In this document: piece by piece, positions 13,283-50,140 of the stretch
How positions within the stretch are numbered: position 1 is the stretch's first letter
How the letters are laid out: each line of letters opens with the position of its first letter
From: Bacilli bacterium
GTDB taxonomy: Bacteria; Bacillota_I; Bacilli_A; ML615J-28; CAG-698
Length of the DNA stretch: 64,000 nt
Reading direction: 5' to 3'
NCBI GenBank assembly: GCA_028691515.1
Contig: JAQUZE010000004.1
Location: 26,667-90,666, forward strand
The notes under the pieces: generated by a model
What the model was told of the DNA's origin: nothing
The model's database searches: none
What the model saw: the letters and a program-made list of their open reading frames with translations, nothing else
Position numbers and translations under genes: made by a program

Positions 13283-15001
13283 ATGAGAACAAAAGATATT
13301 ATTTTTAATACATTAAAAAACAGTAAAACTTTAATTGCTACACTTGTAATTTATATGATATTATCAACTGTTTTTCTAATTGGGTTTCCATTGATTGGTT
13401 GGAAGTTGCTTGAAGTTGCTGATACTTTAGAAGTTAATAGTATATGGCTTATATTATTTTCTTTATCTGCTTTATTGTTTTTTATATTTGATAATTTAAG
13501 AGTGAAAACTAATGTAATTTTATGTACTAAAGTAAATAATAATTTACAAAATGTGTTATATAAAACTGCTCTAAATGGCGATTTTCGAGATTTAGAAAAA
13601 CTTGATGATGCTTATCTAACAAAAAATATTATTATAAACACTAAAAAAATTACTTTAGATTATATGGAAAACAACATTATAGTTTTTATTAATGAAATTT
13701 TAGTGATTATTGCAATTTTTATTGCTGCTTTTAGTGTCCATGCAATTTTTGCTGCAATATTGCTGGCATCTTTACCAATTATTTATATAATATTAAAAGC
13801 ATTTGTAAAATTTTCTGATAAATTTTATGATAAAAAAATGCATACTGAAAAAGAAAGAATTTCTGAAATATCAAATAAAATTAAAAATATTAAAAACATT
13901 AAAATAAGAAATGGAATTCAAAAAGAAGAAAGTATTTTTAGTGAAGAACTAAAGAAATATTCAAAAAGTCATAAGAAAAATGAAATTTTAAATTTTATGA
14001 GTAATAAGAGTATGAGAACATTATTAAGTGCAGTGTTAATGGTTACTTTTATTTCTCTTGGAATTATTTTGATGAAGAATCAACATAATTGGGATTTGGG
14101 AATTAGACCTACTGGAGTTAGAGATATTTTACTTTTTGTGTTACTGACACCTATTGCGTATGCTTCTTTCAATAAAATTACTAGTTGTCATTTATCACCT
14201 TCACAAATTAGTGATGAATTAGACGAGATTGATCAATTTTTATTAATTAGAAGTGAAACAAAAGAAGGTCAAGTTGATCATTTTGATGATGTAAGGATAT
14301 TGTCATTTGAAAATGTTTCATATTCTTCTGATAAAGCTAATTTTTCTAATATTAGTTTTGAAGTTAAAAAAAATCAAAAAATTGCGCTATTTATAGAATC
14401 AAATAATATTAATGAAGTTTTAACTAATTTAGTTAATAAACTTGAAAAACCTCAATATGGCTCAATTAGTATTAATGATTGTGATTTTAATCGAATAGAT
14501 ACAAATTATTTAAGAGGATTAATTAGTGAAATTATTCCGGAAAGTAAATTAACAAAAAACAGCATAAGAGATAATATTATTTACCCATTTGAATTTGATG
14601 AGTATCAATATAATGATGTATTAAATAAATGTTTATTGAAAGAAACCATTAATCGTTTTGAGAAAAAAGATAATACAATTATAGATAAAGAAACTGATCT
14701 TTCCGAAGATGAAAAATTACGATTAATTTGGGCTGGTGCATTATATCGTGATGGTAAAGTTATTTTAATTGATGATACTAATATATCTATTAGTGAAACT
14801 AAATATAGTTTGATTAAAGAAACATTAAAACTTAAAAATAGAATTTTTATTTTTATTACTAAAGATATTGATGTTATAAAAAATTGTGACAAAGTAGTAA
14901 TTTTTAAAGATAATATAATTGTTGAATCAGGAGATACACAAGATTTGTTGAATGATAAAAAATCAATAATTTCGAGTATGATAAAAAAGAAGAATAGATA
15001 A
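13283..15001 (+). CDS. ABC exporter-type half transporter with degenerate (non-catalytic) nucleotide-binding domain
   Basis: The N-terminal ~300 aa has about six predicted TM helices (type I exporter TMD). The C-terminal NBD fold is recognisable but Walker A is absent (KIALFIESNNINEV). The signature is LSEDE instead of LSGGQ. Walker B is ILIDD. The H-loop His is absent. Confidence 0.65.
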   Translation: MRTKDIIFNTLKNSKTLIATLVIYMILSTVFLIGFPLIGWKLLEVADTLEVNSIWLILFSLSALLFFIFDNLRVKTNVILCTKVNNNLQNVLYKTALNGDFRDLEKLDDAYLTKNIIINTKKITLDYMENNIIVFINEILVIIAIFIAAFSVHAIFAAILLASLPIIYIILKAFVKFSDKFYDKKMHTEKERISEISNKIKNIKNIKIRNGIQKEESIFSEELKKYSKSHKKNEILNFMSNKSMRTLLSAVLMVTFISLGIILMKNQHNWDLGIRPTGVRDILLFVLLTPIAYASFNKITSCHLSPSQISDELDEIDQFLLIRSETKEGQVDHFDDVRILSFENVSYSSDKANFSNISFEVKKNQKIALFIESNNINEVLTNLVNKLEKPQYGSISINDCDFNRIDTNYLRGLISEIIPESKLTKNSIRDNIIYPFEFDEYQYNDVLNKCLLKETINRFEKKDNTIIDKETDLSEDEKLRLIWAGALYRDGKVILIDDTNISISETKYSLIKETLKLKNRIFIFITKDIDVIKNCDKVVIFKDNIIVESGDTQDLLNDKKSIISSMIKKKNR

Positions 15002-15015
15002 TTATAGTATTTGAA

Positions 15016-15050
15016 GGTATTATTCATAAAAATAATACCTTTTTTTATTT
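15016..15050 (+). terminator. Rho-independent terminator after the ABC gene
   Basis: The hairpin is GGTATTATT-cataaaa-AATAATACC, followed by TTTTTTTATTT. Confidence 0.7.
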
Positions 15051-15087: not shown

Positions 15088-15096
15088 TGTTATAAT
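15088..15096 (+). promoter_or_regulatory. extended -10 promoter element upstream of the giant CvpA-fused gene
   Basis: The element is TGTTATAAT (TGn + TATAAT), about 26 nt upstream of the ATG at 15122. The RBS-like AAGGGACGGG follows it. Confidence 0.4.
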
Positions 15097-15121
15097 AAAG
15101 CAGAAAGGGACGGGATTTATT

Positions 15122-18100
15122 ATGGATATACCTAATGTAGAATCATTATTTTTATATTTTAATATAGCGATGGTCGTTTTTTTGGTATTGGGAGCATTAT
15201 TTGGTTTTTTAAAAGGATTTTTTAAGTCAACATATAATTTGGCTGTTTTTGTGGGGTTATTGATAATAGGAATTATTATTAGTCCAATTTTTGTAAAAAT
15301 AATTTTAAATTTTGATATTTCAAGTGTAGTTGACGTTGATTATGATGGTGTTATAATTACTAGCCTCAGTGCATCAATTACTCCAATTGCTGAAAAAATT
15401 ATGCCTGAGTTAGCAGGAAAAGTTGTACCGGGGACAGAAATGTATGAATTGGTTTATCAATTAATGGTAACTATTTCAAGATTGATTTTTATTATAGTTT
15501 GGTATTTTTTAACAATTTCAATTTTTAAATTTATAAGTTGGATTGTTTACTTAATAATTCGCCCCCGAAAGAAAAATAGAAAAAAGAAAACATTAAATTC
15601 TCGTTTGCTTGGTATGGGTATTGGATTTGTACATGTAGTTGTAGTTATGTTTATTATTAGTATTCCAATGGGTGGAATTACATCTCTTGCTGCAAGTGCA
15701 CAAAACTTGATTCCATCAAATGACGAAGGGGACCTAGCTTTTTTTGAAGAAGAAACACCTTTAATAGATCTTGCATCTGGTGATTCAGATGAATTAATGA
15801 CATTAATGATTGATTTCTCTAAAAAACTATCTAAGGATTATCGAAAAACAGTAATTGGTGGAATTAGTGGTTTTATCAAGATTGATGGAGAAGGTTTGGA
15901 CGAAAGATTTTTCTCATCATTGTTCTCAGTAAAATATAATAAACAAAATATAAGATTAACTTCAGAGTTAAAAAAAGGTTTGTCAATTTATAGCTTAATT
16001 GAGGAAAAAATTGATGAAGAAATTTCTATTCAAGAAGTCTTGTCTTTAGATGAAGAAACACTTAATTATATTATTGATACAATTAAAGAGTTAAAAATTA
16101 TAAATATTATACCTCCTGTTGGGTTAGAGTTTGCATATTTAACAGGTGAACTAGATATGATAACTCAAGAAGATTACCAGGCAATTCTTACTGAAATAAA
16201 AGCTGTTAATTTTTCTAATGATATATCAAGTATTGCTGATGTAGGCGTTAAAGCTGGTAAATTAGGTCTTTTAGAAAAACAAGAAACTGATTACTATTTA
16301 AATTTAGATGTAGATAAAGTTAAAGAATTATTCATAGGTATCGGTTCTCTTGAATTACTAGATGCTATTGATTCATTTGCATTTGATTTACTTTTAAATA
16401 TGCCAGAAGTTAATGATGCATTAATTAATGCAAATATTGATCCAGAAGAAATTAATTTATCAAATGTTTCACTAGGAGATGAAGTTACAAATTTAGGTAA
16501 CATTTATGAAGCTTTTGTTGAAATGAAAATTGCCTATAATGATGAAACCCAAACTGTTAATTTAGAGTTAGTTTCAGATGATAGTATTAATTTGTTTTCT
16601 ACAGCAATTTATGAGTCATTATTATTTTCTCAAAATATTAATGTATTAACTAATATTTTAATTGAACAACTACCAGCTGAATATAGAGATGTTTTAACAA
16701 TAGATATAATTGAGCAAAATGATTTTGTTTCAATTTTATCTTTGGGAGTTATCCTTATTAAAACCAATATTTTATCAGAGGAATTTGATTTTACTGATTT
16801 GTTTGGTGAAGAGACTATGGATAAAATTGCAACACATATTTCTAATTCACATTTGTTAGCAGATAATATCAACGGAGTATTAGATATTATTTTAACTGAA
16901 GCCGATTTACCATTTAAAATAGATATACCGGAAGATTTAACTTGGTATGGTGATACAGGTAAAACAGAATTAAAGGCTTTATTGGGCTCTGCTCGTCAAT
17001 TATTTGAACTTGGTATTGCTGAAGAAAATTTTGTTGAAAATTTAAATTCAACAAATATTGAGGAACTTTCAGATGTTATGGATGATTCTGTAATATTAAT
17101 GCATAATATGAATAATTTACTTGATTTTGTAATTGGAGAATCTGGTATTAATGATACCGTTACAATTACAATTAGAGATATAGACTGGGAAAGCACAGAA
17201 GGAAAAGAAGAGTTTAGAAATATTTTAGGTTCTGTTGCACTAATATTTGAAGCTAAATTATTAGACAATCCTAATCTTGCTGAATTGTCTGATGGTACTA
17301 TTGATACAAATGAAGATGGAGTTATTAATGAAGATGATGATAATATTATTAATGACCTTGCAAAAAAATTATCTTCATCTATAATAATAAAAGATAATTT
17401 AAGTAGTATTATTGATCAATTAGTAACTACTGAAATTCCTGATTTAGAATTTGAAACATTTACTGATCCAGATGATTGGACAGAAACAGAATTAGATTCA
17501 ATTTTTAGATCAGTTAAAATTATTATCACAAAAGAGAATATTCCGGAAGATTTGTTTGCTTTATCTGAAAATGAAATAGATACTGTTTTGTCCTCAAGAC
17601 TTATTGGTCAAATTTTTGTTAAAACTATTGAAAAAGAAGCAGAAATTGGTGGTAGTTTACATGGGTTATTAATAGTCCAACGGGCTGAAGGTAATTGGTA
17701 TGATCAGTATCTTGGTGAAGTTAGAGTAGACGGGGAATTAAGAAAGTTAGTTAAATCAGCAAAAATATTATTAGGAGACAATCCGAATTTTGATGATCCT
17801 GATAATATTCTTGACATAAATGCTATTTTAGATTTGACAGATGCGAAATTAGATGAATTAACAAATTCAATAGTGTTAAAAGATTCAATTTCTAATCAAA
17901 TCATTGATTTAGGAAATGAAGAAATTATTGTTGTAAGTATTCCTCAATTTGATAATAGGTGGAACGATGAAATCCCTAATTTTATAAAAGGAATTAAAAC
18001 TATTGTTGGAGAAGAAGTTGATTTAGATAATTTAAATATTGATGTTAATAATATTAAAAATTTAACTGATGGTACGGTTGATCCAAGTGATGATGAAATA

Positions 18101-20167
18101 GGAACAATGTTATCTTCATTAATTATTAGTGACACTATTATTGATAAAATAATTGGATTAGGTGATACTGGCGGCAGTTTAGTTGTAAATTTAACAGCAA
18201 CAGATGCAAGATGGTATGACACTGAAACAGAAGATGGTGAAATAAGAAAGCTTATTAAGGCAATAAAAATTTTTATTGATGAAGAGGCTGACTTAAATGA
18301 TTCTAATTCTTTTGACATTAATAAAATTAGAACTTTAACTGATGGTTCAGTTGATCCAAGTGATGATGAAATAGGAACAATGTTATCTTCATTAATTATT
18401 AGTGACACTATTATTGATAAAATAATTGGATTAGGTGATACTGGCGGCAGTTTAGTTGTAAATTTAACAGCAACAGATGCAAGATGGTATGACACTGAAA
18501 CAGAAGATGGTGAAATAAGAAAGCTTATTAAGGCAATAAAAATTTTTATTGATGAAGAGGCTGACTTAAATGATTCTAATTCTTTTGACATTAATAAAAT
18601 TAGAACTTTAACTGATGGTTCAGTTGATCCAAGTGATGATGAAATAGGAACAATGTTATCTTCATTAATTATTAGTGACACTATTATAGATAAAATAATT
18701 GATTTAGGTGATACTAGTGGCACTTTAATTGTTAATTTATCAGTAAATGATCCTAGATGGTATGATACTGAAACAGAAGACGGTGAAATAAGAAAATTAA
18801 TTAAAGCGTTAAAAGTATTAATTGGTGAAGAAGAGGACATTAATAATCCAAGCTCGATAGATGTTAATACAATTAAGACCTTATCAGATGGTTCTATTGA
18901 TCCAAACGATGATGAAATAGGAACAATGTTATCTTCATTAATTATTAGTGACACTATTATTGATAAAATAATTGGATTAGGTGATACTGGCGGCAGTTTA
19001 GTTGTAAATTTAACAGCAACAGATGCAAGATGGTATGACACTGAAACAGAAGATGGTGAAATTAGAAGATTAATTAAAACTTTAAAATTATTGATTGGAG
19101 AAACAGGAGATCTAAATGATCCTTCTGTAATTGACATTGATGAAATAATTAGCTTGGATGAAACAGCAATGAATACTTTAGTGACTTCAATTATTATTGT
19201 AGATACAGCTGTTAATTCGATTGAAGATTTAACTTCCTCAACTGGTTCACTTAATAACATATTAATTGTTCCTGATGATTTAACAAATGAGGATTACTAT
19301 GGAATTAATGGGGAATTGAAAAGGTTCTTAACTGCTGTAAAAACTATTAGAGGTGCAGGAACTTTAGAAAACACAACCTTTAATGTTGATAAATTTTTGG
19401 GAGAAGACCAAGAAACACTTCTTAATTCTAGAATTATTGAAGCATCAGCAATTAGTTATATTTTATCTTCAGATAAATTATTGATTCCAGATAGTGTAAC
19501 ACCATATTATTATTTGTCTAATGAAGATATAGTTTGGGAGAGAACTTATTCTGGAGAAACTTTAGAAGATATTGGAGAATTAAGAAGATTCTTATCAGGA
19601 GTTAAAACTCTTGTTGGCGTAAATACATTTGCTGACTTGGCATTTGATATGAATACAATGTTAGCTATTGATTTTACTGATGTTGTTAAATCAAGAGTAC
19701 TAGAAGCTACAATAACTGATATGGTTACTGAATTAATCGAGACAGGACCTTTAAATGGTTTAATTAAACAACCTAGTAATAATTATCAATGGTATTATCA
19801 TGAAACAAGTAATGACGTAAATGTTGGTCTTATTAGAAGGGGCGAATTTGAATTAACAAATAGCCCAACTTATCAATATTCTGATTTACTTGGATTCTTG
19901 AATGCAATTCAACAAATGGATTCAGTTGGTTTGAATTTTAATTCTGTTGATATGAATACTATTGCAGCAATAAATTCTACAGATTTAGCAACTGCATTTT
20001 GGGATTATTCAAGAATTACTAGAGGTTCAGTTGCAACAATATTGAATTACGTATTAAAAGATGTTAATCATCCATTAAAACCAACATTTACTGATTCACA
20101 GTTTAGTGATAAACAAGATGTAATTGATGGATTAGATATATTTAAATACTTTGTTTCTTTAATGTAA
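15122..20167 (+). CDS. giant membrane-anchored acidic repeat protein with N-terminal CvpA-like (colicin V production family) transmembrane domain
   Basis: The 1681-aa ORF is uninterrupted. The N-terminal ~200 aa has four or more TM helices resembling CvpA (MDIPNVESLFLYFNIAMVVFLVLGALFGFLKGFFKS). The remainder is highly acidic. It consists of repeated ~91-aa modules, each with a W(Y)D...GE(I/V)R(K/R)L(I/V)K core. Confidence 0.7.
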   Translation: MDIPNVESLFLYFNIAMVVFLVLGALFGFLKGFFKSTYNLAVFVGLLIIGIIISPIFVKIILNFDISSVVDVDYDGVIITSLSASITPIAEKIMPELAGKVVPGTEMYELVYQLMVTISRLIFIIVWYFLTISIFKFISWIVYLIIRPRKKNRKKKTLNSRLLGMGIGFVHVVVVMFIISIPMGGITSLAASAQNLIPSNDEGDLAFFEEETPLIDLASGDSDELMTLMIDFSKKLSKDYRKTVIGGISGFIKIDGEGLDERFFSSLFSVKYNKQNIRLTSELKKGLSIYSLIEEKIDEEISIQEVLSLDEETLNYIIDTIKELKIINIIPPVGLEFAYLTGELDMITQEDYQAILTEIKAVNFSNDISSIADVGVKAGKLGLLEKQETDYYLNLDVDKVKELFIGIGSLELLDAIDSFAFDLLLNMPEVNDALINANIDPEEINLSNVSLGDEVTNLGNIYEAFVEMKIAYNDETQTVNLELVSDDSINLFSTAIYESLLFSQNINVLTNILIEQLPAEYRDVLTIDIIEQNDFVSILSLGVILIKTNILSEEFDFTDLFGEETMDKIATHISNSHLLADNINGVLDIILTEADLPFKIDIPEDLTWYGDTGKTELKALLGSARQLFELGIAEENFVENLNSTNIEELSDVMDDSVILMHNMNNLLDFVIGESGINDTVTITIRDIDWESTEGKEEFRNILGSVALIFEAKLLDNPNLAELSDGTIDTNEDGVINEDDDNIINDLAKKLSSSIIIKDNLSSIIDQLVTTEIPDLEFETFTDPDDWTETELDSIFRSVKIIITKENIPEDLFALSENEIDTVLSSRLIGQIFVKTIEKEAEIGGSLHGLLIVQRAEGNWYDQYLGEVRVDGELRKLVKSAKILLGDNPNFDDPDNILDINAILDLTDAKLDELTNSIVLKDSISNQIIDLGNEEIIVVSIPQFDNRWNDEIPNFIKGIKTIVGEEVDLDNLNIDVNNIKNLTDGTVDPSDDEIGTMLSSLIISDTIIDKIIGLGDTGGSLVVNLTATDARWYDTETEDGEIRKLIKAIKIFIDEEADLNDSNSFDINKIRTLTDGSVDPSDDEIGTMLSSLIISDTIIDKIIGLGDTGGSLVVNLTATDARWYDTETEDGEIRKLIKAIKIFIDEEADLNDSNSFDINKIRTLTDGSVDPSDDEIGTMLSSLIISDTIIDKIIDLGDTSGTLIVNLSVNDPRWYDTETEDGEIRKLIKALKVLIGEEEDINNPSSIDVNTIKTLSDGSIDPNDDEIGTMLSSLIISDTIIDKIIGLGDTGGSLVVNLTATDARWYDTETEDGEIRRLIKTLKLLIGETGDLNDPSVIDIDEIISLDETAMNTLVTSIIIVDTAVNSIEDLTSSTGSLNNILIVPDDLTNEDYYGINGELKRFLTAVKTIRGAGTLENTTFNVDKFLGEDQETLLNSRIIEASAISYILSSDKLLIPDSVTPYYYLSNEDIVWERTYSGETLEDIGELRRFLSGVKTLVGVNTFADLAFDMNTMLAIDFTDVVKSRVLEATITDMVTELIETGPLNGLIKQPSNNYQWYYHETSNDVNVGLIRRGEFELTNSPTYQYSDLLGFLNAIQQMDSVGLNFNSVDMNTIAAINSTDLATAFWDYSRITRGSVATILNYVLKDVNHPLKPTFTDSQFSDKQDVIDGLDIFKYFVSLM
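17795..19159 (+). repeat. tandem array of 273-bp (91-codon) coding repeats inside the giant gene; 4 high-identity copies at 18068, 18341, 18614, 18887 plus a diverged leading copy
   Basis: Starts are spaced exactly 273 bp apart. Copies 1 and 2 are near-identical at nucleotide level over the full unit (DG(T/S)VDPSDDEIGTMLSSLIISDTIIDKIIGLGDTGGSLVVNLTATDARWYDTETEDGEIRKLIKAIKIFIDEEADLNDSNSFDINKIRTLT). Copies 3 and 4 share the first half. Confidence 0.85.
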
Positions 20168-20179
20168 ATAAAAAATATA

Positions 20180-20220
20180 AAACCCTTAAGATTTATTAAA
20201 CTTAGGGGTTTTTCTTTTAT
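20180..20220 (+). terminator. Rho-independent terminator after the giant repeat gene
   Basis: The hairpin is AAACCCTTAAG-atttattaaa-CTTAGGGGTTT, followed by TTCTTTTAT. Confidence 0.65.
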
Positions 20221-20322: not shown

Positions 20323-21759
20323 ATGAAAACGATAAGAACAAGATTTGCACCGAGCCCAACTGGATTTATGCATGTTGGTAATCTAAGATCAGCATTGTAT
20401 GCTTTTTTATTTGCTAAGCAAAATAATGGGAAACTAATTTTAAGAATTGAAAATACGGATACAGATAGAGTTGTTCCGGGAGCTGTTGAAGTTATATATA
20501 ATACATGTAAAGCAGCAAAGATTACTTTTGACGAAGGTCCAAATGAAGGTGGAAATTTTGGACCATATGTACAAAGTGAAAGAAAAGAAATATATCAGAA
20601 ACACGCAAAAGAATTAATTGATAAAGGGCATGCATATTATTGTTTTTGTGATAAAGAGAGATTAGCAAATGTCACTTTTATGGGGACACATAGATATGAT
20701 AAACATTGTTTATACTTATCAAAAGAACAAATAGAAGAAAATTTAGCAAAAGGTATTCCGTATACTATAAGACAAAACATCCCAATTGAAGGTGTAAGCG
20801 AGTTTGAAGATTTGGTTTTTGGTAAAATAACAATTCCTAATAAAGAGTTAGAAGATAATGTGCTATTGAAATCTGATGGTATGCCAACATATAATTTTGC
20901 TAATGTTGTTGATGATCATTTGATGGGAATAACTCACGTTATTAGAGGTAATGAATATTTAAGTTCAACTCCAAAATATAATTTTTTATATGATAATTTT
21001 GGTTGGGAAAGACCTGAATATATTCATTTAACTCCAATTATGAAAGATGAAAATAGAAAATTAAGCAAGAGACATGGTGATGCAAATTTTGATGATTTTA
21101 TAAATAAAGGTTATTTAGCTGAAGCCATTGTTAATTATATTGCATTGTTAGGATGGAGTCCTAAAGATAATCAAGAAAAATTTACTATGGAACAACTTAT
21201 AAATAGCTTTTCAGTTTCAGGTTTAAGCAGATCAAGTAGTGTATTTGATGAAGTGAAAATGAAATGGTTAAATGGAGAATATATTAAGGAATTAAGTTTT
21301 GATAACTTTATGAATTATGCTATACCATATTTTGAAAAATCTAATATTAAAGGAAAATATGATTATAATAAATTTGGACATTTATTGCAAAGTAGAATAG
21401 AAACTTTTGGTGAAATCCCTGAAAAAGTAAGTTTTATTACTAATTATCATAAATTTGATAAGAATTTATATTATAATAAAAGATTTAAAATTGATTATAA
21501 TAAAGCAAGAGAAGTTATTGAAATAAGTTTATCTTTATTTAATAAACTTGATAATTGGTTAGATGAAGAATTAAATAATATAATTAACAAAACCGCTGAA
21601 GTATTAGAAATTAAATCAGGTGCTGTATATTCGGTATTGCGCCTTGCAATATCAGGTGTTCAAATTACTCCTGGAGGTGCTGTAGAAATTGCTGATATTT
21701 TAGGAAAAGAAGAAACAATAGAAAGATTGAATAAGGCTTTGAATTGGCTAAGAGATTAA
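20323..21759 (+). CDS. gltX: glutamyl-tRNA synthetase
   Basis: The HIGH-region context is present (RTRFAPSPTGFMHVGNLRSALYAF). A KMSKS-like KLSKRHG is present. Length is 478 aa. Confidence 0.9.
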   Translation: MKTIRTRFAPSPTGFMHVGNLRSALYAFLFAKQNNGKLILRIENTDTDRVVPGAVEVIYNTCKAAKITFDEGPNEGGNFGPYVQSERKEIYQKHAKELIDKGHAYYCFCDKERLANVTFMGTHRYDKHCLYLSKEQIEENLAKGIPYTIRQNIPIEGVSEFEDLVFGKITIPNKELEDNVLLKSDGMPTYNFANVVDDHLMGITHVIRGNEYLSSTPKYNFLYDNFGWERPEYIHLTPIMKDENRKLSKRHGDANFDDFINKGYLAEAIVNYIALLGWSPKDNQEKFTMEQLINSFSVSGLSRSSSVFDEVKMKWLNGEYIKELSFDNFMNYAIPYFEKSNIKGKYDYNKFGHLLQSRIETFGEIPEKVSFITNYHKFDKNLYYNKRFKIDYNKAREVIEISLSLFNKLDNWLDEELNNIINKTAEVLEIKSGAVYSVLRLAISGVQITPGGAVEIADILGKEETIERLNKALNWLRD

Positions 21760-23165
21760 ATATAGGAGAAGATATGCTTAAAAAAGAAGAATTAAAAAAA
21801 ATATTAGATGTATGTTTGGAAACTGGTGGTGATTTTGCTGAATTATATTTTGAAGATACAATTAAAAATAATTATGAATTAACTAGTGGTAAAGTAACAA
21901 GAATTACTACGAATAATTTGTATGGTGCTTCAATTAGAATTTTACATGGAGCAGAAGAGTCATTTGGTTATTCAAGTGATATTAGTTTTGATAGTTTAAT
22001 GACTCTTGCTAAAAAACTTAATGCTAGTTTCAATTATCCAAAATTAGATATTGATTTTGAACTAAAAGAAGAACACACACCAATTATTAATTTACCTGTT
22101 ATTTTACCTAGTTCTTTAAGTAATAAAGATAAGATTAAACATCTAAAGTTGTTAAATAAAGGTATTTTAACTTATAAAAGTGATGAAATTAGCCAAGTAA
22201 TTTGTATGTTATCTGATGAGGAGCAAAGAATTACAGTAGTTAATACATTGAATAAAATGGTTACAGATTTAAGGACTCATATTAGACTTGCAGCAAATGT
22301 TGTGGCAAAAAATGAAGATGTAATGCAAACTGCATTTGATTCTAAAGCTGGCAATCAAGGTTACGAAATGTTTGATGATTTTAATTATGATGATTTTGGC
22401 TATGAAATTGCTAAAACTGCAGTAACTATTCTTCATGCTGATGAAATGGTTGGTGGGAATATGGATGTAGTTTTACATAATGGGTTTGGTGGTGTATTAC
22501 TTCATGAAGCTTGTGTTCATTCACTTGAAGCTACTTCTGTTGCAAAGGGGAATTCTGTTTTTTGTAATAAATTAGGGCAAAAAATTGCTAGTGATATTGT
22601 TACTGCTGTTGATGATGGAACTATTCCTAATGGGTGGGGTTCTTTAAATGTTGATGATGAAGGGAATAAAACACAAAGAAATGTTTTAATTGAAAATGGA
22701 ATTTTAAAATCTTATTTAGTTGATTATAGAAATAGTAAAATTATGAATCACTCAATTACTGGGTCTGGTAGGAGACAGAGTTATAAATATTCTCCAACAT
22801 CTAGAATGACAAATACTTTTTTTACGCCAGGTGAAAGCAAATTTGAAGAAATTATTGAAAATACTAAATTTGGTTTATTTGCCAAGAAAATGGGCGGTGG
22901 ATCAGTAAATCCAACAACAGGGGAATTTAATTTTTCAGTTAATGAAGGATATATGATTGAAGATGGTAAAATTACTAAACCTGTAAGAGGTGCTACACTT
23001 GTGGGGAGTGGTGCATATATTTTAAAAAACATAGATATGATTGCAAATAATTTGGAGTTTTCTTATGGTATGTGTGGTTCTAAGAGTGGTTCTATTCCAA
23101 CAATAGTTGGTCAACCTACAGTTAGAGTTTTAAATCTAACAGTAGGAGGAAGGGGAGAGAAATAA
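21744..23165 (+). CDS. tldD: TldD family metalloprotease
   Basis: The HExxxH zinc motif is present (LHEACVHSLEA). The length and its pairing with the downstream PmbA paralog fit TldD. The true start may be the internal ATG (MLKKEEL) near 21775. Confidence 0.8.
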   Translation: MAKRLNIGEDMLKKEELKKILDVCLETGGDFAELYFEDTIKNNYELTSGKVTRITTNNLYGASIRILHGAEESFGYSSDISFDSLMTLAKKLNASFNYPKLDIDFELKEEHTPIINLPVILPSSLSNKDKIKHLKLLNKGILTYKSDEISQVICMLSDEEQRITVVNTLNKMVTDLRTHIRLAANVVAKNEDVMQTAFDSKAGNQGYEMFDDFNYDDFGYEIAKTAVTILHADEMVGGNMDVVLHNGFGGVLLHEACVHSLEATSVAKGNSVFCNKLGQKIASDIVTAVDDGTIPNGWGSLNVDDEGNKTQRNVLIENGILKSYLVDYRNSKIMNHSITGSGRRQSYKYSPTSRMTNTFFTPGESKFEEIIENTKFGLFAKKMGGGSVNPTTGEFNFSVNEGYMIEDGKITKPVRGATLVGSGAYILKNIDMIANNLEFSYGMCGSKSGSIPTIVGQPTVRVLNLTVGGRGEK

Positions 23166-24475
23166 TGGATTATCAAAAACTTTTTGACTATGGCAAAAAA
23201 ATAGGTTTTGACGATTTAGAAATTGGGATTAGTTATAATGAGTCTCTTTCAATCTCTTTGTTTGAAGGAAAAGTTGAAAAAAATGAAGCTGTTGTTGAGA
23301 AAAGATTTACATTAAAAGGTTTATTAAATGATAAGATGGCTGTTATTTCTTTTGAAGACGAATTTATTAATGAAAAAACACTTATAAAAAAATTAAAAGA
23401 AAATGTTGAGAGTTTAACTTCCGATGAAAAATATGAAATATTCGCTGGTAGTGAAGCTTATCCAGATACTATTAATAGAAATGCAGGATTTAAAAGCATT
23501 TCTTCTTTAGAGAAGATTGAGTTATTAAAGACTTTAGAAAAAGAAATACTTTCTTTAGACGATAGAATTAAAGCTGTTCCTCATTGCTCATATGAAGAAG
23601 ATACTAGTGCTATTCAAATAATTAATAGCAAAGGTTTAAATCTTGAGAAAACAGGAGAATATTGTTTCTTAGTAGCTCAAGCTGTCGCAAAAGATGGAGA
23701 AGAAACACAAGATTCTTTTGAAGTGAAAGCAGTTTTAAAGTATGAGGATTTTGATGTTAAATCTATTGCAAAAAAATTAGTACATGAAGCTATTTCCATG
23801 TTAGGTGCTAAACCAATAAAATCTGGAAAATATCCAATTATTTTTGAAAAGAAAGCTATGAGTTCTCTTTTTGGAGCTTTTAGTTCTCTTTTTAATGGTG
23901 AAGCTGCAATTAAAAAATTAACAACTCTTCTTGGTAAAGAAGGAAAACAAATTATGAATAACAGTATCAATATTATTGAAGATCCTCTTGATTTAAATTT
24001 TTTAAGATATCAACCATTTGATGATGAAGGAGTTGCTACTTATAAAAAGTATATTGTTAAAGAAGGTATTTTTACTTCTTTTATCCATAATTTAAAAACT
24101 GCAAAGTATTTTAATACTAAAACTACAGGAAACGGGTATAATGGTTCAGTTGGTTTTTCTAATGTTTATATTGAAGCAGGAGATAAAAAGTATGATGAAA
24201 TGATTTCTGGTATGGAAGATGGATTATTAATCACTAGTTTATCTGGACTGCACGCAGGTGTAAATCCTATAAGTGGAGATTTTAGTTTGCAATCTTCAGG
24301 ATTTTATATTAAAGATGGAAAAATTGAGAAACCTGTTACTTTAATAGTTGTTTCAGGAAATTTCTTAAAAATGATGAATAATATTGATGAAATAGGTTCT
24401 GATTTAGAACTTAGATATAATGGTATAAGTGCACCTTCTATAAAGGTGAAAAGTTTGCCAGTTTCTGGCGAATAA
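23165..24475 (+). CDS. pmbA: PmbA/TldE family metalloprotease partner
   Basis: It is a paralog of the upstream gene but lacks HExxH. It shares the C-terminal beta-rich region. Stop and start overlap with tldD (ATAATGG), suggesting translational coupling. Confidence 0.75.
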   Translation: MDYQKLFDYGKKIGFDDLEIGISYNESLSISLFEGKVEKNEAVVEKRFTLKGLLNDKMAVISFEDEFINEKTLIKKLKENVESLTSDEKYEIFAGSEAYPDTINRNAGFKSISSLEKIELLKTLEKEILSLDDRIKAVPHCSYEEDTSAIQIINSKGLNLEKTGEYCFLVAQAVAKDGEETQDSFEVKAVLKYEDFDVKSIAKKLVHEAISMLGAKPIKSGKYPIIFEKKAMSSLFGAFSSLFNGEAAIKKLTTLLGKEGKQIMNNSINIIEDPLDLNFLRYQPFDDEGVATYKKYIVKEGIFTSFIHNLKTAKYFNTKTTGNGYNGSVGFSNVYIEAGDKKYDEMISGMEDGLLITSLSGLHAGVNPISGDFSLQSSGFYIKDGKIEKPVTLIVVSGNFLKMMNNIDEIGSDLELRYNGISAPSIKVKSLPVSGE

Positions 24476-27490: not shown

Positions 27491-30400
27491 ATGAAAAGAA
27501 TAACAAAATATTTACTTATTTTTGTTTTCGTTTTATCAGTCTTTACTTTGGCTGCTTGTGGCAAAGTAAAAGTTACTGATATTACTATTGAGAATCCTGC
27601 AATTTCATTAGAAGAAGAAGCTACAGAGCAAATCGTTTATACGGTATTGCCTGAAGATGCAACTGATAAAACAGTTACATTTGCTTCTGCAAATCCTGAA
27701 ATTGCAACTGTTAGTGAGACAGGTTTAGTTACTGGTGTTGCTGCCGGTGATACAAAAATTACTGTTACTTCTGGTAAAATTGAAAAAGAAGTTGATGTAA
27801 CAGTTGTTGAAAAAGGCCCTGAACCTTTAACTATTTCTGCGGCTTTAGCCCTTGATGATCTAGCAGATGTTACTTTAAAAGGACAAGTAATTGGTATCCA
27901 AGGTACACAAGCATGGTTAGCTGATACTGAAGCTGGTATTTCTTTATATAATGTACCAGAAGCAGATTTAGCTAAAATCGTTGTTGGTAATGTTATAGTT
28001 GTTACTGGAAAACGTGCTGATTATTCAGGCACAAAGCAAATTGGTGATATAACTGAAATTAAGGTTGTTGAAACTGATAAACCTGCAATAGCATCTATTA
28101 ATCTTGCTGATTTGTCTGAAACTAAGTTAAATGAATCTAATCAAAGATTAATTAAAGGTAGTTTTGAAATAACACAAGTTCCTACAACAATTGAATATAA
28201 TGAAGATGGCTCATTAAAGAACCATTTAACTTATAAAATGACTGACGGAACTAATGAAGTAATTTTTTATGTGAAAAAATATTTATCTGCTGCTGCTGTT
28301 ACTTCAATGAAAACTGTTTTAGACAGTATTGAATTAGGTGGAAAAATTACATTTGATAAGGCTGTTGTTGGCTGGTATAAATCAGTTCCTCAAGTTTTAG
28401 TTATAAATGAGACAGTATTATCATATGAAGCTCCAACTATTGTTGAAGTTACTGGTGTAGAAGTAACAAATAAAACTGTTAAAGTTGATCAAGAATCAAC
28501 AGAACAGATAATTTATGAAGTTTTACCTGCAAATGCAACAGATAAGACTGTTACATTTACTTCTGCTGATGATACTATTGCTACAGTTAGTGAAACAGGT
28601 TTGATTACAGGTGTTGCTGTTGGTGAAACAACTATTTCTGTAAAAGCAAAAACATTTGAACAAATCGTTACTGTAACTGTAACAGAAAAACCTCTTACAA
28701 TAGCTGAAGTATTAGCTGTTGATGATGAAACTGAAGTTTTATTTAAAGGTCAAGTTATTGGTATTCAAGGAACACAAGCATGGTTAGCTGATGGAGAAGC
28801 AGGTGTGTCTTTATATTCAATACCAAGCGAACACATGGATAAAATCGTTGTTGGTAATGTTATTGTAGTTGCTGGGCAACGTTCTGATTATTCAGGAACA
28901 AAACAAATATCAAGTATTACATCAATTGAAGTTCGAGAAACTGGACAATCACAACTTGATTCAATTGATCTTGCAGATTTGGAAGCAGATACTTTAAATA
29001 ATACTCTTCAACAATTAATAGGAGGCAGCTTTGAAGTTACTGCTGTTCCTAATGCTGTAGAATATAATGAAGATGGTTCTTTAAAAAATCATTTAACTTA
29101 TAAAATAAGTGATGGAACTAATGAAGTTGTTTTCTATGTTAAAAAATATTTATCTATAGAAGCTGTTACATCAATGAAAGATGTATTAGATTCTATCGAA
29201 TTAGGTGGAACACTTACTTTTGATAATGCTGTTGTTGGTTGGTATAAATCAGTACCGCAAGTATTGGTTATTAATGAAACATCAATTAGTTTTGTTGCTC
29301 CTGCTGATCCTACTAGTGTGGTTATAACAAATGTTGACGAATTTGTAATTAATGTTCCTAAACAACTAGAAGCAATCGCTATTCCAGTTGGAAAAGTTGT
29401 TAATTACGAATGGTCAGTAGATAATGAAGCTATAGCAACTATTTCAGAATCTGGGGAGCTTACATTTATTGCACCTGGTGAAGTTGTTGTTACAGTTAAA
29501 ATTGTAGAATTTCCTACATTGACTGCATCTAAAACATTTACTCTTGTAGCACCAGATCCAACAGATATTACTATTGAAGGAGATTCAAAAGTAATTATTC
29601 ATGAGGGACAAACTTATCAGTATATTGCTACAGTTAATCCAGCTGGCGCATTACAAACAGTAACTTGGTCTGTTAATGATGTTACTAAAGCTACTGTTGA
29701 TGAATTTGGAGTTTTAACTCCAATTGCTGAAGGCTCTGTACAACTTACTGCCACTTCAACAATTAATGAAGCAATAACAAGAATAAAATTTGTTCAAATA
29801 GAAAATTATATTGAACCTAATGTTGTTATTGAAGGCTCACCAATGGTTTCTGTAGGAATTCCTACACCATTTAAAGCTACTGTAGAATCAAATTTTTTAA
29901 GTAAAAAAGTTGTTTGGTCAATTAGTGATGAAACTATTGCAACTATTTCTGAAGATGGAATATTAACAGGATTAGTTGAAGGTACAGTTACGGTTACTGC
30001 AACTTCTGAAGATGATCCTCTAGTAAAGAGTACATTCGAAGTAGAAGTTATTGTAATTTCACATGCTAATATTGTAATTGATGCAACAATTAATGACGAA
30101 ACACCATTTGAATTAACTTATGATGAAGTAGTTTATTATAAAGGAATTAATGCATTTGCAGAATTTTCTGATGCAGCTGCTTTAATTCAAGATGGAGCTA
30201 TTATTTATGTATTACCTGGTGAATACATTAAAAAAGCATCATTTAATGCTAGTAATATTCAAATTATTGGACCTAATGCAGGTATAAATCCTGTAACTGA
30301 TTTAGGATCAAGAACTGATGAAGCTAATGTACAAGCTGAATTATCTTTTGGAACTAAAACTAATAAATTAAGCAATGTTGTTATAGATGGTCTTAAATTT

Positions 30401-33400
30401 ACTGGATCTGGTTATATTTATGCTCCTTATGGAATAGATGATTTAACTGTACAAAACGTATGGTTTACTGCTCCAAATATTGACGCAGCGAAAGGTATGA
30501 TTTATGCTGCTGCTCCAACAATTGATGTTACAAGTAAAAATATTATTGTTCAAAATTCAGTGTTGGATGATAGTAATTTCTTAGGATATCGTGGTATTAG
30601 ATTAAATAATACTGAAAATATTACTATTATAGATAATTATTTCTATCAATTCTATGATGCAATTAGATTAGAATGTACAGGTAATGGTGGCTTTAATGTT
30701 GCTCCTAATGGTATTGGGGCTGCTGGAACTGTATTAATTTCAGGAAATGAATTTGATATGAATCGTCAGTATCCAATCATTCTTACTGTAGTAAGTGCAA
30801 CAAAAGTAGATGTTATTCACAATACAGTTTTGACAGATGTTGCTTTTGGAGGATCATGGGGACAAGTTTATATGTCTAATATCGTTCCAACAGATGGAGT
30901 TAAAACTGTTATAAATATTAAATATAATACATTTGAGAATTTTAATAATTATCATTCTGTAAGAATTAAATCTAACGGTCTTACTGCTGAAAATCTTGAA
31001 TATAATGTTAATTTTAATAAATGGTTAGCACAAAATAATATATATGAAGAAGCTGGTGAAATGGTTCATGAATCATATGTTTATTGTTCAATGGCTGAAG
31101 GAGATGTTGATTTAGTTACAAATGCGGCAAACAATTATTTTGCAGTAGCACCTGAAGCTATCGACTTTACAAATGTAAATACATTTGAACCTTACTTTAC
31201 AGATCTTGAAGCGTTTGAATATGCAAAAGGTGTAGACTTAGGCGAAATTGATCCCCTTGAATTACATTTATTCTTAGAAAGCAATCAAATTCAAGCTGGA
31301 AAGACAGCTCAATTAACATCTAATCTTGAGGGAACTACTTATGTTTCAAGCAATACAGATGTTGCAACAATCGATGCTTCTGGATTAATAACAGGAGTAA
31401 CTGAAGGAGAAGCAGTAATCACTGCTACAAATGGTGAAAAAACCGCAACTGTTACTGTAACAATTATTATGGGATACGATCCTTTAAATATGATGGTTGA
31501 TCCAGCTTGGGCAACTGAAGTTGAAGGAACAATGATAACTGTTAATGAACTTGAATATATAGTTGGATTGAACGGTTTTGCAACATTAGCTGATGCTGTT
31601 GAAAATGCAATTGATAATTCAACAATCTTAGTTATGGCTGGAGAATATGATGGAGGATTTGACATTGTTAAATCTGGTGTTTCAATTATTGCACCTAATG
31701 CTGAGACAAATCCAGTACTTGATGAAACTCCTTTCTTAAAAGCATCTGAAACTGCAGTACATATTAATACTGAATTTTATGTAAACGCAAGTAATGTTAC
31801 TATTAAAGGAATTTCTATGACTGGTGATGTTAGACTTCGTGGATTTACACAAATTTCTAATTTCCATTTTGAAAACAATTATGTATATGAAACATACGCA
31901 GCAACAGTAGCATGGAAAGAATTAACATATGGTATTGATTCTTCAAGTACTGGAGAGGTTACTCCTGGAGTTATTAATTTTGCTGGAAATTATACATGGG
32001 CACAAAATTTTGAATTTATTAATAACAAATTTTATAATGTTGATGATACAAATGTGTTCTTAGGATTCGCTGATAGCGCTACATTTATTGGCAATCATTT
32101 TGAAGGGTTTGGCAGAGATGCTGTACGTTTTGACTACGGACAAAACAAAGGAGTATTTGTATTAGATAACAATGAATTTATCAATGGTAAATTAAATGCT
32201 ATTTTCTTTAGAGGCTATACATCTTCAATTGCACCTGGAGAAATTAGTGTAACAGTATCAAATAATACATTTGATTCAGTTGGATTAAATCCTGATGAAA
32301 TTGTTACAACAAGTATTGCATTTGCTGGATTAGCAATTAGAAACCATCAAGAAAAAGCTGATGCAGTGTTTAATATATTTAAAAATGATTTTGTAGATTG
32401 TCCTGTAGCATTATCATTAAGAAATAATTATGCTTCAAGTATGCCTTATGAACTTGAAATATATGTTTCTTATAACTCATTTATTAATGAAGTAGCTCCA
32501 GCTTTCTATCATAAAAATCAATTTGGGGGAGATAGTAATACTTCAAATCCTGCTGATGCAGTATTTAAACACAACTATTATGGGTCAAGTGAAACTGTAG
32601 CTGTTGTTCCAACAGCAAGTCAATTTAATAATGCTGTTGTTGAACATGAAAATGATTTTGCAACATACGCAGATTTAGCAGCTGAAAGACCTAATGTAGA
32701 ATTATATGGAAAACTGATAACTTCATTAGAAATTACAAAATATGATGGAGTTGATTGGAGTGGTTTATTAGTAGTTTTAGATCCAGATGGAGACAAAGGA
32801 GCATATTGGTATAATATTATCTTACGTGAAACTACTACTGAAGGATTGTATGAAATAGTAGCAATTGGCGTTGGCGCAGTATTTAATGCTGAAACTGATG
32901 ACTACTGTATTGGTATACATGACGAAAATCCTCTTTATTCAAGCTTTGTAGCAAGTGGCCTAGAAGTTGGACATATAGTTACTTTCCCAGGAACTGATTT
33001 ATCAACTTTATCTCCTGGTGCGATTTCTGTAATGGCGAATTTCTATGGTGAAGTTGCTGAAGATTTACCACCTGTTTTAGAATTAACAATTGAAAATACC
33101 GAAATTGAAGCTGGAACAAACGGACAACTAGTTGCCAATATTGAGGGAACAACTTATGAATCAAGTGATATTTCTATTGCTACAGTTGATGAGTTTGGAG
33201 TTGTTACTGGAATCAGTTCAGGAGAAGTTACTATTACTGCAACTAATGGGGAACAAACAGCGACTATTACAATAACTATTTTTGAAGTAATTGTTCCTTT
33301 AAATTTATTAGTTGATCCTGCTATGGTTTTAGCTAATGATGAAGTATTTACTTTTGACGGAATTGAATACAAAGTGGGAGAAACTGCTTTTGCATTGTTA

Positions 33401-38856: not shown

Positions 38857-39522
38857 ATGGTAAACTTGTTTAAAAAATATTTATGGGTATTTGAGTGGGT
38901 AGGAGCAGCAATATTAATTGGAATTGGTATTACAGTTGCTATTGTTGATCCAATAGTTTACGTTGTAACAGGTATTATTTTAACAATTTTTGGATTATTT
39001 AGAGTGATTCCTTTAGTTAGAACAACAAAAGCTAAAACGATGAAAATTATTTTAACTGTAGAAGTAGGTTTGAATATTATATTAGGTGGATTATTAATAT
39101 TTTTTGGCTTAAAAGAGAATTTTGATTTAAGCACTTTAAATAATATATATGGTTATTTATTAGGAGCAATTTTATATTCACGAGGAGTAATATATTTTCT
39201 TGGTACAAGTATTTATCAAGAAAGGACTTCACCAGTTTTATTTCTAGCTCATATTGCGTTTATTACTTTGGGGACTTGGTTTATTTTATCTGGAAATCTT
39301 ACAAGTGAAAAATTAGGCTTTGCTATTTTAGGTTTAGCTATTTTAGCAGCATTAATATTAATTTTACATGGTTCGAGAGGCTATAAGAGTTATCGTATTG
39401 ATTCTTTATCTAAAGATGAAACAAAAAGCATTAAAACTAAAGAACAACCTATAAAAAGTGATAAAAAAGATATAATTGTTGATAAGGAAGAACAAAAGAG
39501 AGAGGAGAATATAATTAATTAA
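38857..39522 (+). CDS. hypothetical polytopic membrane protein with charged C-terminal tail
   Basis: There are five to six hydrophobic helices with repeated small-residue motifs. The C-terminal 50 aa is Lys/Glu-rich. It is tightly packed between argS and an M42 peptidase. Confidence 0.5.
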   Translation: MVNLFKKYLWVFEWVGAAILIGIGITVAIVDPIVYVVTGIILTIFGLFRVIPLVRTTKAKTMKIILTVEVGLNIILGGLLIFFGLKENFDLSTLNNIYGYLLGAILYSRGVIYFLGTSIYQERTSPVLFLAHIAFITLGTWFILSGNLTSEKLGFAILGLAILAALILILHGSRGYKSYRIDSLSKDETKSIKTKEQPIKSDKKDIIVDKEEQKREENIIN

Positions 39523-48649: not shown

Positions 48650-50140
48650 ATGAAAAGAAGTTTTTTTGAATATAAAGATAATCAATTATTATTAATGGAT
48701 ACTAAATTATTAGAAGTTGATTGCGTAATTATTTCAGCAAGTTCTCTTTTAAAAGCAATGGAGAATAGTAATTTTAATGAGGAAATATTTAATGAGTTAA
48801 TAAGTAATAAATCAATTTATATCAAAGTTAGTTTTCAAAATTATATAAGTACAAAGAAGATTTTAAATAATGATAATTTTCCTTTTATTTCAGGATTTTA
48901 TCTTGAAAATGTAGAATCAAAGTTTTTAAATAAAATGACAGATTTTTCTAGATGTTATGAAAAAGAACATAAGTTGAACTTTGGTTCATTAATCTTTATT
49001 GGAGAAATTTCTACTCCTAAAGCAACAATGGAAATAAAAAAAATTTGTAACTATGATCGTCTTTCTTTTTTAACATTTAATGTATTTAAATTTAAAGATT
49101 ATATTGGTGTTAATACTATCGATAAGATGCATTATTTTAATAAAATATTAGAGTGTGCTTTTTATTATAAAAAGTTTATTTTGTTACATGGTGTAAATTC
49201 TATAAATGAGTATAAAAATTTAGGAATAATTGGCGCAATAACTGATAATATCTTGGAAGTTACTACAATTAATGATATCTTTACTCCAAATGAAAAAGAG
49301 ATTAAAGAAGCTGACCTTTATTTAAATATGTATTTAGAGCATCAAAAAACTCATTCCAAAAAGCAATATTATAATTTTAGTACAAATAAATTACTTTATT
49401 ATAATCTGATTTTAGAAAGAGCATACATATTAAATAAAAATTATAAGGTGAATAGTCTTTCATTAATAAATAGTAATATTTCATTATTAAAAACAAAAAA
49501 ACAAGAAATTAGTAAATTTTATACTTTTGGTGAAGAATTAGGGAATTCTATTACTCATGGGATTGGCATTATTGCTGGTGTTGTATTCTTAATTTTGTTA
49601 TTGATTAAAGTAAATAATAATTATAATATAGTAAACTTTATGGCTTATTTAATATATTCTCTTAGTGTGATTGTTTTATATACTTCCTCTTTTATTTATC
49701 ATTTATTACCTTTGGGTACAAGAGCAAAGATGATATTTCAGCGTTTTGATCATATGACTATTTATTTACTTATTGCTGGCTCATATACACCTTTTGCTTT
49801 AATAGCGTTAGGAGGATTATCCGGTATTATTTTAGCAAGTATTATTTGGTTTGGTGCTATAAGCGGATTATTATTAAACTTATTTTGGTTTGGAAAATTT
49901 AGAGGATTTCATATTTTTTTATATTTACTATTAGGATGGGCAGCGCTATTTTTTATAGTTCCTATTATAAGAGGGTTAGGAACAACTGGGACAATTTTTT
50001 TATTTGCTGGAGGAGTCAGTTATACTATAGGCATTATTTTTTATAGTTTTAAATTATTTAAATTTACACATATGGTATGGCATTTGTTTGTATTGTTAGG
50101 AACAATTCTCCATTTCCTTGGTATTTATTTGTGTTTATAA
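48650..50140 (+). CDS. hemolysin III/PAQR-family 7-TM protein with ~290-aa N-terminal soluble extension of unknown function
   Basis: The C-terminal 200 aa has the Hly-III core (GNSITHGIGIIAGVVFLILL, YTSSFIYHLLP, FQRFDHMTIYLLIAGSYTPF). The N-terminal extension (MKRSFFEYKDNQLLLMDTKLLEVDCVIISASS...) matches no family I can name. Confidence 0.7.
   Translation: MKRSFFEYKDNQLLLMDTKLLEVDCVIISASSLLKAMENSNFNEEIFNELISNKSIYIKVSFQNYISTKKILNNDNFPFISGFYLENVESKFLNKMTDFSRCYEKEHKLNFGSLIFIGEISTPKATMEIKKICNYDRLSFLTFNVFKFKDYIGVNTIDKMHYFNKILECAFYYKKFILLHGVNSINEYKNLGIIGAITDNILEVTTINDIFTPNEKEIKEADLYLNMYLEHQKTHSKKQYYNFSTNKLLYYNLILERAYILNKNYKVNSLSLINSNISLLKTKKQEISKFYTFGEELGNSITHGIGIIAGVVFLILLLIKVNNNYNIVNFMAYLIYSLSVIVLYTSSFIYHLLPLGTRAKMIFQRFDHMTIYLLIAGSYTPFALIALGGLSGIILASIIWFGAISGLLLNLFWFGKFRGFHIFLYLLLGWAALFFIVPIIRGLGTTGTIFLFAGGVSYTIGIIFYSFKLFKFTHMVWHLFVLLGTILHFLGIYLCL

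Follow-up and report, generated by a model that had tools for sequence, protein, structure and literature searches.

A divergent CvpA-like membrane domain joined to a giant acidic repeat region: a candidate surface protein family of Bacilli, its named members from wall-less lineages

The window analyzed here is a 64,000-nucleotide stretch of DNA from a Bacilli bacterium (assembly GCA_028691515.1, contig JAQUZE010000004.1, forward-strand positions 26,667 to 90,666) with a G+C content of about 26%. Its positions 15122-20167 (+) hold one complete coding sequence, a single open reading frame (ORF) with an ATG start and 1,681 codons plus stop, which encodes the giant acidic protein that is the subject of this work. 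The protein contains no Cys, consists of Asp and Glu to 17.7% and of Lys and Arg to 7.2%, and has an isoelectric point of 4.09 and a net charge of -176 at pH 7. Hydropathy confines its hydrophobic segments to residues 3-193, with none beyond residue 196, and the roughly 1,487 residues that follow the membrane domain are highly acidic, residues 195-1681 alone (treated here as the ectodomain) carrying a charge of -182. A first-pass annotation of the same DNA had read the gene as a CvpA-like N-terminus of four transmembrane (TM) helices fused to a long and highly acidic extension, and our results bear out both halves of that description, the former as a remote likeness that stays below the gathering score of the family.

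The gene appears to be monocistronic, with terminators flanking it on both sides. The intrinsic terminator of the upstream ATP-binding cassette (ABC) gene, a hairpin and U-run at 15013-15042 (+), has a 12-bp stem, the run UUUUUUU and a minimum free energy (MFE) of -11.2 kcal/mol (z -3.6). The giant gene's own terminator, again a hairpin with a U-run, lies at 20179-20212 (+) and also has a 12-bp stem (MFE -13.6 kcal/mol, centroid -13.1 kcal/mol), and none of 200 shuffles folded as well. Nearly all shuffles were less stable than the native sequence at either hairpin. A simple terminator scan missed both hairpins because the stems are A+T-rich or the loops long. On the initiation side, reading the sequence by eye gave a candidate extended -10 element, TGTTATAAT, at 15088-15096 (+), and a purine-rich ribosome-binding region, GAAAGGGACGGGA, at 15103-15115 (+), the end of which is separated from the ATG by 6 nucleotides (nt). 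A consensus promoter scan returned 42 sites, with 41.8 expected from shuffles of this 26% GC DNA, and so showed no excess. Where the gene had been credited with a promoter and a terminator of its own, the terminators are found on both sides, while the promoter at TGTTATAAT is plausible as a candidate only. An antisense ORF of 438 residues (17944-19260, -) lies wholly within the repeat region and is most likely a by-product of repetitive, stop-poor sequence.

The first 196 residues (15122-15709, +) appear to form a CvpA-like four-helix membrane domain, as judged from hydropathy, from secondary structure in an AlphaFold2 (AF2) model and from a sub-threshold match to the Pfam family Colicin_V (PF02674), with predicted TM helices at about residues 6-31, 33-63, 106-145 and 158-196. 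Colicin_V was the top family for all five divergent family N-termini that were compared (best E 7.6e-6), and the N-terminus of the window protein scored 19.7-20.6 bits (E 4.6e-4 to 9e-4), the match of residues 1-264 alone covering positions 2-125 of the 144 in the profile. No family member tested attained the gathering score of 29.3 bits, a distant relative (P0090) coming to a sub-threshold 27.0 bits, and the full-length giant protein gave no Colicin_V match at E<=0.01. In the reverse direction, CvpA of Escherichia coli K-12 MG1655 (b2313) scored 20.4 bits against a hidden Markov model (HMM) of 157 family N-termini, in two collinear pieces, the first covering TM1 and a G-x-x-R-G-F motif and the second running from TM3 through the loop to R-x-L-G-x-x-x-G-x-x-x-G in TM4. 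None of 2,000 shuffles of CvpA (1,000 global and 1,000 local, the latter in a 15-residue window) reached that score, the maximum being 9.0 bits. Alignment with the single E. coli CvpA by hhalign gave only a short match, with a probability of 5.6% when 5 family sequences were used and of 23%, over 34 columns, when 157 were used.

Two motifs lie within this match. Immediately after TM1, the motif G28-x-x-K/R-G32-x-x-K-S (GFLKGFFKS; 15203-15229, +) aligns with 'SLIRGFVRE' of E. coli CvpA, and at the start of TM4 the motif R161-x-x-G164-x-x-x-G168-x-x-x-(G)172 (15602-15637, +) aligns with DRVLGVCFGALRG of the same protein. Both G28 and G32 are present in 157 of 157 family members (100%), and conservation is also high at R161 (146 members, 93%), G164 (155, 99%) and G168 (150, 96%), with G172 kept in 109 (69%). 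The position preceding R161 is a gap, Ser or Asn in the family, versus Asp in CvpA, among whose homologues 'an aspartate and three glycines' are reported as nearly invariant (bioRxiv 10.1101/2020.09.25.314492). Judged by these sequence comparisons, the N-terminal domain forms a diverged branch within the CvpA superfamily and falls short of the Pfam threshold, and the likeness is real but remote.

The residues just listed (G28, G32, R161, G164 and G168) are the most conserved of the whole protein, which argues that the membrane domain is more than a passive anchor and leads to a reading in which the protein would be the CvpA of its lineage, active in envelope homeostasis or transport, with a giant tail, overgrown from the variable outside tail of CvpA, that senses or binds outside partners and regulates the membrane domain. 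Several observations fit such a role, as the periplasmic C-terminus of CvpA is reported to be of variable length, to be required for function and to be a possible site of partner binding (bioRxiv 10.1101/2020.09.25.314492), as NCBI already gives the name 'CvpA family protein' to some giant members, and as an enlarged gene of the same name, MBOVPG45_0669 of 1,398 nt (about 465 residues), is listed in Mycoplasma bovis, where it tolerated transposon insertion (PMC4045577). We nevertheless consider this reading unlikely, if worth keeping in view, because the molecular function of CvpA is itself not established (bioRxiv 10.1101/2020.09.25.314492) and the reading consequently explains little. Moreover, the near-invariant Asp of CvpA is not conserved in the giant family, every family member tested falls below the gathering threshold, and 12-34 modules of varying copy number resemble a structural or spacer element over a sensor.

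The likely orientation of the protein in the membrane follows from its loops. Among the 157 homologues the mean net charge is -1.3 at the N-terminus, +2.6 in loop 1, -5.2 in loop 2, +6.2 in loop 3 and -2.6 after TM4, the second loop being the long (about 55 residues), acidic one that would lie outside. By the positive-inside rule, the basic loops 1 and 3, together with the predicted topology of CvpA, whose C-terminus is predicted to be out (bioRxiv 10.1101/2020.09.25.314492), suggest that both termini lie outside and that the acidic domain is extracellular, and from this we infer an N-out/C-out topology in which the repeat domain faces outward. The inverted arrangement, in which the acidic repeats would be cytoplasmic and provide a wall-less cell with a scaffold tethered to the membrane or with part of its cytoskeleton, seems very improbable to us, as the charge bias puts loops 1 and 3 inside and the segment after TM4 outside and as the CvpA prediction points the same way. 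A Cys-free, all-helical domain would be compatible with either compartment, and wall-less bacteria do use unusual internal scaffolds, both of which count in its favor.

Beyond the membrane lies a family-conserved, mostly helical juxtamembrane ectodomain at residues 197-570 (15710-16831, +), recognized by profile matches and by AF2 helices, residues 280-575 being modeled as helical with a predicted local distance difference test (pLDDT) of 60-87. This domain takes the same position in all members inspected (15 sampled and the window protein) and was matched in 166 of about 200 pooled proteins, close relatives and fragments included. No Pfam family matched residues 197-570 and no PDB sequence matched residues 1-575, and the PDB structures retrieved with the model of residues 1-575, which were 14-3-3 proteins at E>=0.5 and TM-scores of 0.1-0.2, were set aside as noise.

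The remainder is an array of 12 acidic alpha-helical modules at residues 572-1601 (16835-19924, +) with a period of 80-91 residues. A first module HMM, which started from the four young copies and was refined by iteration over the window protein together with five homologues, describes a core of about 70 residues, and a family-wide profile was built from about 1,600 modules; both find 12 modules in the window protein, nine of them at an independent E-value of <=1e-5 and three between 6e-6 and 1.4e-3 with the family-wide profile. About 2-3 further divergent copies, at residues ~395-570 and 1570-1677, are visible only with iterated profiles and bring the total to 14-15, so that the some 15 modules of about 91 residues that had been proposed are approached with sensitive profiles, while 12 are robust and their period is 80-91 residues. 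Similarly, the strict core W(Y)D...GE(I/V)R(K/R)L, which had been ascribed to each module, was found in 7-8 modules, the earlier ones showing a looser W...E(L/F). Three positions are near-invariant across 109 diverse modules, namely S11 at the N-terminus of helix 2, P35 in the loop and E52 at the N-terminus of helix 3. The C-terminal tail, residues 1602-1681 (19925-20164, +), looks like a divergent terminal module, as a profile made from it hits module positions in other parts of the protein, and it contains neither a hydrophobic anchor by hydropathy nor an LPXTG motif in the translation.

The youngest modules are four tandem copies of 273 nt (91 residues) at 18039-19157 (+), found by an in-register repeat search. 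Tandem Repeats Finder placed the 273-nt unit at 18045-19067, with 3.7 copies and 90% matches, and at the DNA level the first two tandem copies share 97% identity, the remaining pairs 81-86%. For the module structure, two consecutive modules were modeled by AF2 from an alignment of 33 non-overlapping module pairs. The resulting model is confident and all-alpha (pLDDT 87.2; predicted template modeling score, pTM, 0.84), each module comprising four predicted helices of about 8, 16, 12 and 6 residues and a long, confidently placed non-regular loop. As the pTM places neighboring modules confidently, the modules are suggested to pack into one continuous structure, and the ectodomain modules probably form a continuous, elongated body.

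The statement in the first-pass annotation that the module could not be placed in a known family holds throughout our searches. In Pfam, no family was common to more than one of the 109 diverse modules, FIVAR, GA and DUF1542 being unmatched, and the modules were likewise unmatched in NCBIfam. The full protein had no sequence match in the PDB, and the module profile had a viral phosphoprotein as its best match there (E 0.005) and, in the ranks below, mostly EF-hand proteins (E 0.09-1), none of them convincing. Foldseek with the two-module model returned nothing in the PDB at E<=10 and nothing meaningful in BFVD. A word-indexed homologue search with the 109 modules yielded one fragment only and is uninformative on other architectures. 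The Pfam family MurD-like_N was rejected as a candidate, since the full protein exceeds its gathering score (29.5 versus 27 bits) and no single stretch passes the E-value cut-off; with one module scoring 14.9 bits (E 0.034), it looks like a false positive in which weak matches are summed over near-identical modules. A role as a defense system was also rejected, as PADLOC gave no match, and literature searches found no paper on the family.

The protein belongs to a large family. Exhaustive HMMER searches with the N-terminal profile matched 1,109 representatives of 50%-identity clusters at E<=1e-3, 328 at <=1e-10 and 109 at <=1e-30, and in every match listed the CvpA-like domain is N-terminal, starting within residues 1-28. 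Among the newly retrieved top matches, 113 of 144 have at least 1,000 residues (median 1,404), and 144 of 146 pooled family proteins of at least 800 residues carry 1-34 modules, with a median of 17.9% Asp plus Glu and 4.8% Lys plus Arg. Members are often among the largest proteins of their contigs. Close orthologues (P0001-P0009) share 82-100% identity with the window protein, and P0008, P0010 and P0011 share 59-62%; distant relatives of 1,222-2,639 residues have the same layout. The named sources, taken from cluster names, are Acholeplasma sp. and Acholeplasmataceae (both annotated 'CvpA family protein'), Haloplasmataceae, Candidatus Izemoplasmatales and Tenericutes/Mycoplasmatota, to which metagenome-assembled genomes (MAGs) of unresolved Bacilli, Bacillota and Firmicutes are added; a contig scan with a single narrow peptide pattern gave two loci.

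Length differs even between close relatives, those in 'Bacilli bacterium' MAGs having 1,590, 1,499 and 1,411 residues. Young module copies number four in the window protein, three in the 1,590-residue relative and two in the 1,499-residue relative, in public data where copy numbers are unreliable, since short-read assemblies systematically break off or collapse at these near-identical 273-nt units. The MAG proteins P0007 and P0009 break off inside the tandem array, and partial sequences are very common among the homologues from short-read MAGs (P0007, P0009, P0016 and many cluster members). The differences in copy number would fit unequal recombination in a surface protein.

Our results lead us to propose, with moderate confidence, that this is a membrane-anchored, outward-facing cell-surface protein, most likely a polyanionic brush or coat of wall-less or thin-walled Bacilli. 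A CvpA-type four-helix bundle of about 196 residues would span the cytoplasmic membrane and have its two ends outside, and the loop that precedes TM4, which is strongly basic, would stay in the cytoplasm. TM4 would act as a signal-anchor, and the 1,487 residues after it would be translocated, presumably by Sec, and exposed on the outside of the membrane. There the helical base at residues 197-570 and the 12-15 four-helix modules beyond it may form a polyanionic surface coat that serves spacing, hydration, cation binding, protection or attachment. New modules would arise by tandem duplication of the 273-nt unit, so that strains may differ in the length of the protein. The charge, the repetition, the location and the biology of the hosts suggest that it acts as a coat or spacer or binds cations. 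Izemoplasmatales and Acholeplasmatales are peptidoglycan-deficient orders (PMC10868615), and a member of the family (WP_258878251.1, 2,342 residues) occurs in the cultured Xianfuyuplasma coldseepsis, whose cells had no cell wall visible by transmission electron microscopy (PMC8397711).

A bolder version of this proposal, which we put forward as tentative and rather unlikely in its full form, is that the protein acts as a lineage-defining, polyanionic pseudo-wall made of protein: wall-less Bacilli (Acholeplasmatales, Izemoplasmatales, Haloplasmatales), having lost peptidoglycan and teichoic acids, might have expanded the outside tail of a CvpA homologue into a giant acidic helical rod of unseen fold that is held directly in the membrane and takes over the cation-binding, spacing and barrier roles that anionic wall polymers play in walled Gram-positives. 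Free-living wall-less bacteria meet their environment with a membrane only. If the surface coat is real, it would be a major unnoticed envelope component of the relatives of Acholeplasma, Izemoplasma and Haloplasma, it would bring a new helical repeat fold, and for CvpA, a widespread protein, it would point to a definite role in anchoring structures outside the cell or in partnering with them. The member in cultured Xianfuyuplasma coldseepsis makes the family accessible to experiment.

Several points weigh against the proposed surface coat. The AF2 model of residues 1-575, built from 11 sequences, is poor, with a pLDDT of 58.7 overall and of 33-61 in the TM part; the orientation is drawn from the charge bias plus the analogy with CvpA; and the rod shape comes from pTM only. 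The module has no neighbor of known function, so nothing directly indicates a coat, an adhesin or cation binding. With regard to the last of these, EF-hand or Ca binding as a module feature, prompted by the weak PDB matches, was rejected: canonical loops are not enriched, the strict PROSITE pattern PS00018 occurring once in 146 proteins versus 4.5 times expected from shuffles, and a loose EF-loop pattern occurs 23 times versus 4 expected, confined to 20 of the 146 proteins. In the window protein the loose pattern is matched by a single EF-hand-like loop, DTNEDGVINEDD, at residues 728-739 (17303-17338, +), in an insertion between modules 2 and 3. Wall-lessness is known from named relatives, not from the window organism itself, and the 64-kb window, in which PolC is encoded alongside housekeeping genes and genes of wall synthesis are absent, says little either way. 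Differences in copy number between MAGs may in part reflect the collapse of 97%-identical repeats in short-read assemblies, and no conserved neighborhood gives a functional clue, as housekeeping genes surround the window gene.

The gene directly upstream, at 13283-15001 (+), encodes an exporter-type ABC half-transporter (ABC_membrane 49.8 bits, ABC_tran 26.4 bits). Its nucleotide-binding domain (NBD) had been called a dead ATPase, which agrees with our finding that all catalytic motifs are replaced: FIESNNINEV stands where Walker A is missing, LSEDE takes the place of LSGGQ, ILIDDT at Walker B has Thr for the catalytic Glu, and the His of the H-loop is Lys (ITK). There is no partner half-transporter nearby, and the dead-NBD gene is conserved in a close relative (L003). 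Position on the same strand directly upstream, in the window and in that relative, might suggest a functional pair in which the half-transporter exports or cooperates with the giant protein, and we regard such a pair as extremely unlikely. The adjacency is absent at the other five related loci examined (L001, L002, L004, L006 and L007), and this lineage-specific placement, together with the terminator hairpin between the two genes, argues against it; an NBD stripped of Walker A, LSGGQ, catalytic Glu and H-loop His does so too, and an N-terminal multi-pass anchor needs no dedicated exporter.

Other loci have neighborhoods of their own. At the Izemoplasmatales-type loci L001, L002 and L004 the giant gene belongs to a conserved block of PAP2, YcxB, TetR, ABC2, GH36, GH2 and a divergently transcribed Trypsin_2 gene (285-298 residues), the last lying directly upstream of it, and at L004 it is followed by a gene for a 1,237-residue protein without a Pfam match. 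The contig of P0090 (L006) and a food metagenome locus (L007) share a different arrangement, in which an alpha-amylase gene precedes the giant gene and a small ORF, a gene for a 4HBT thioesterase and one for an ABC-F protein come after it; P0173, a cluster-mate of P0090, is named Acholeplasma sp. The glycosidases bear on a further possibility, namely that the array is the stalk of a specific adhesin, presenting a surface for a polysaccharide, a mineral or particle, a host or a cell ligand, with its length tuning the reach. Alpha-amylase genes adjoin the giant gene in two lineages and GH36/GH2 glycosidase genes in the Izemoplasmatales clade, tandem modules exposed at the surface, with apparent variation in copy number, are what adhesins typically show, and the window contains the gene of a second giant, surface-type protein. 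Even so, we think an adhesin doubtful and clearly improbable, as no ligand-binding domain is recognizable at the tip or elsewhere in Pfam or NCBIfam, as the neighborhoods differ between lineages and are of housekeeping type around the window gene, and as a uniform strong negative charge along the length would be unusual for a specific adhesin.

The second giant protein just mentioned is encoded at 27491-34921 (+) and has 2,476 residues, with Ig-like domains of the Big_2 family, at least 6 in number, and a Lamin Tail Domain (LTD) at its C-terminus; it is also present in L003 and probably serves the same organism as a further surface protein. Elsewhere in the window, a TldD/PmbA metallopeptidase gene pair (21744-24475, +) directly follows gltX, the end of which is overlapped by 16 nt by the first gene of the pair if a TTG start is used. 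A 221-residue ORF without a Pfam match (38857-39522, +) lies between argS and an M42 aminopeptidase gene, and a 496-residue protein (48650-50140, +) contains HlyIII (hemolysin-III/PAQR) at residues 293-489 only, its N-terminal ~290 residues being without a domain.

Precedents exist for the separate parts of the proposed surface protein, as surface proteins of giant size and repetitive build, CvpA proteins whose outside tails vary and fusions of four TM helices to an outside domain (MarP) are all known; the novelty lies in their union in one large and conserved family, in a module absent from Pfam, NCBIfam and PDB, and in the link to wall-less lineages. With ordinary CvpA (PF02674) the giant protein shares four TM helices with a predicted N-out/C-out topology, the G-x-x-[RK]-G motif after TM1, the R-x-x-G-x-x-x-G-x-x-x-G motif at TM4 and an extracytoplasmic C-terminal segment of variable length. 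It differs in that ordinary CvpA has about 160-200 residues and a short tail, whereas the giant protein is some ten times longer and its tail is a 1,487-residue repeat domain; in addition, the giant family scores below threshold, does not conserve the Asp before the Arg and has a long and acidic loop 2. The Mycoplasma bovis protein MBOVPG45_0669, likened to it by annotation, is CvpA-named, longer than ordinary CvpA and from a wall-less lineage, but much shorter than the giant protein.

The TM part of MarP is probably CvpA-like, going by its Pfam architecture. This protein of Mycobacterium tuberculosis (Rv3671c) has four N-terminal TM helices and a large, membrane-tethered extracytoplasmic C-terminal domain (PMC4992679), and a four-TM N-terminus plus a large outside domain is what it shares with the giant protein. 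The outside domain of MarP is a trypsin-like protease of ~200 residues, whereas the giant protein has no protease or other known domain in Pfam. A second kind of likeness is found among giant helical-repeat surface proteins of Firmicutes: examples such as Ebh of Staphylococcus aureus (FIVAR-GA) and the DUF1542 proteins consist of tandem alpha-helical modules of about 70-130 residues, form very long surface structures and vary in copy number. Tandem helical surface modules and variation in copy number would be common to these giants and the present family. Their anchor is a C-terminal TM segment or LPXTG, in contrast to the N-terminal four-TM bundle of the window family, which is further set apart by its extreme acidity and by its wall-less named hosts.

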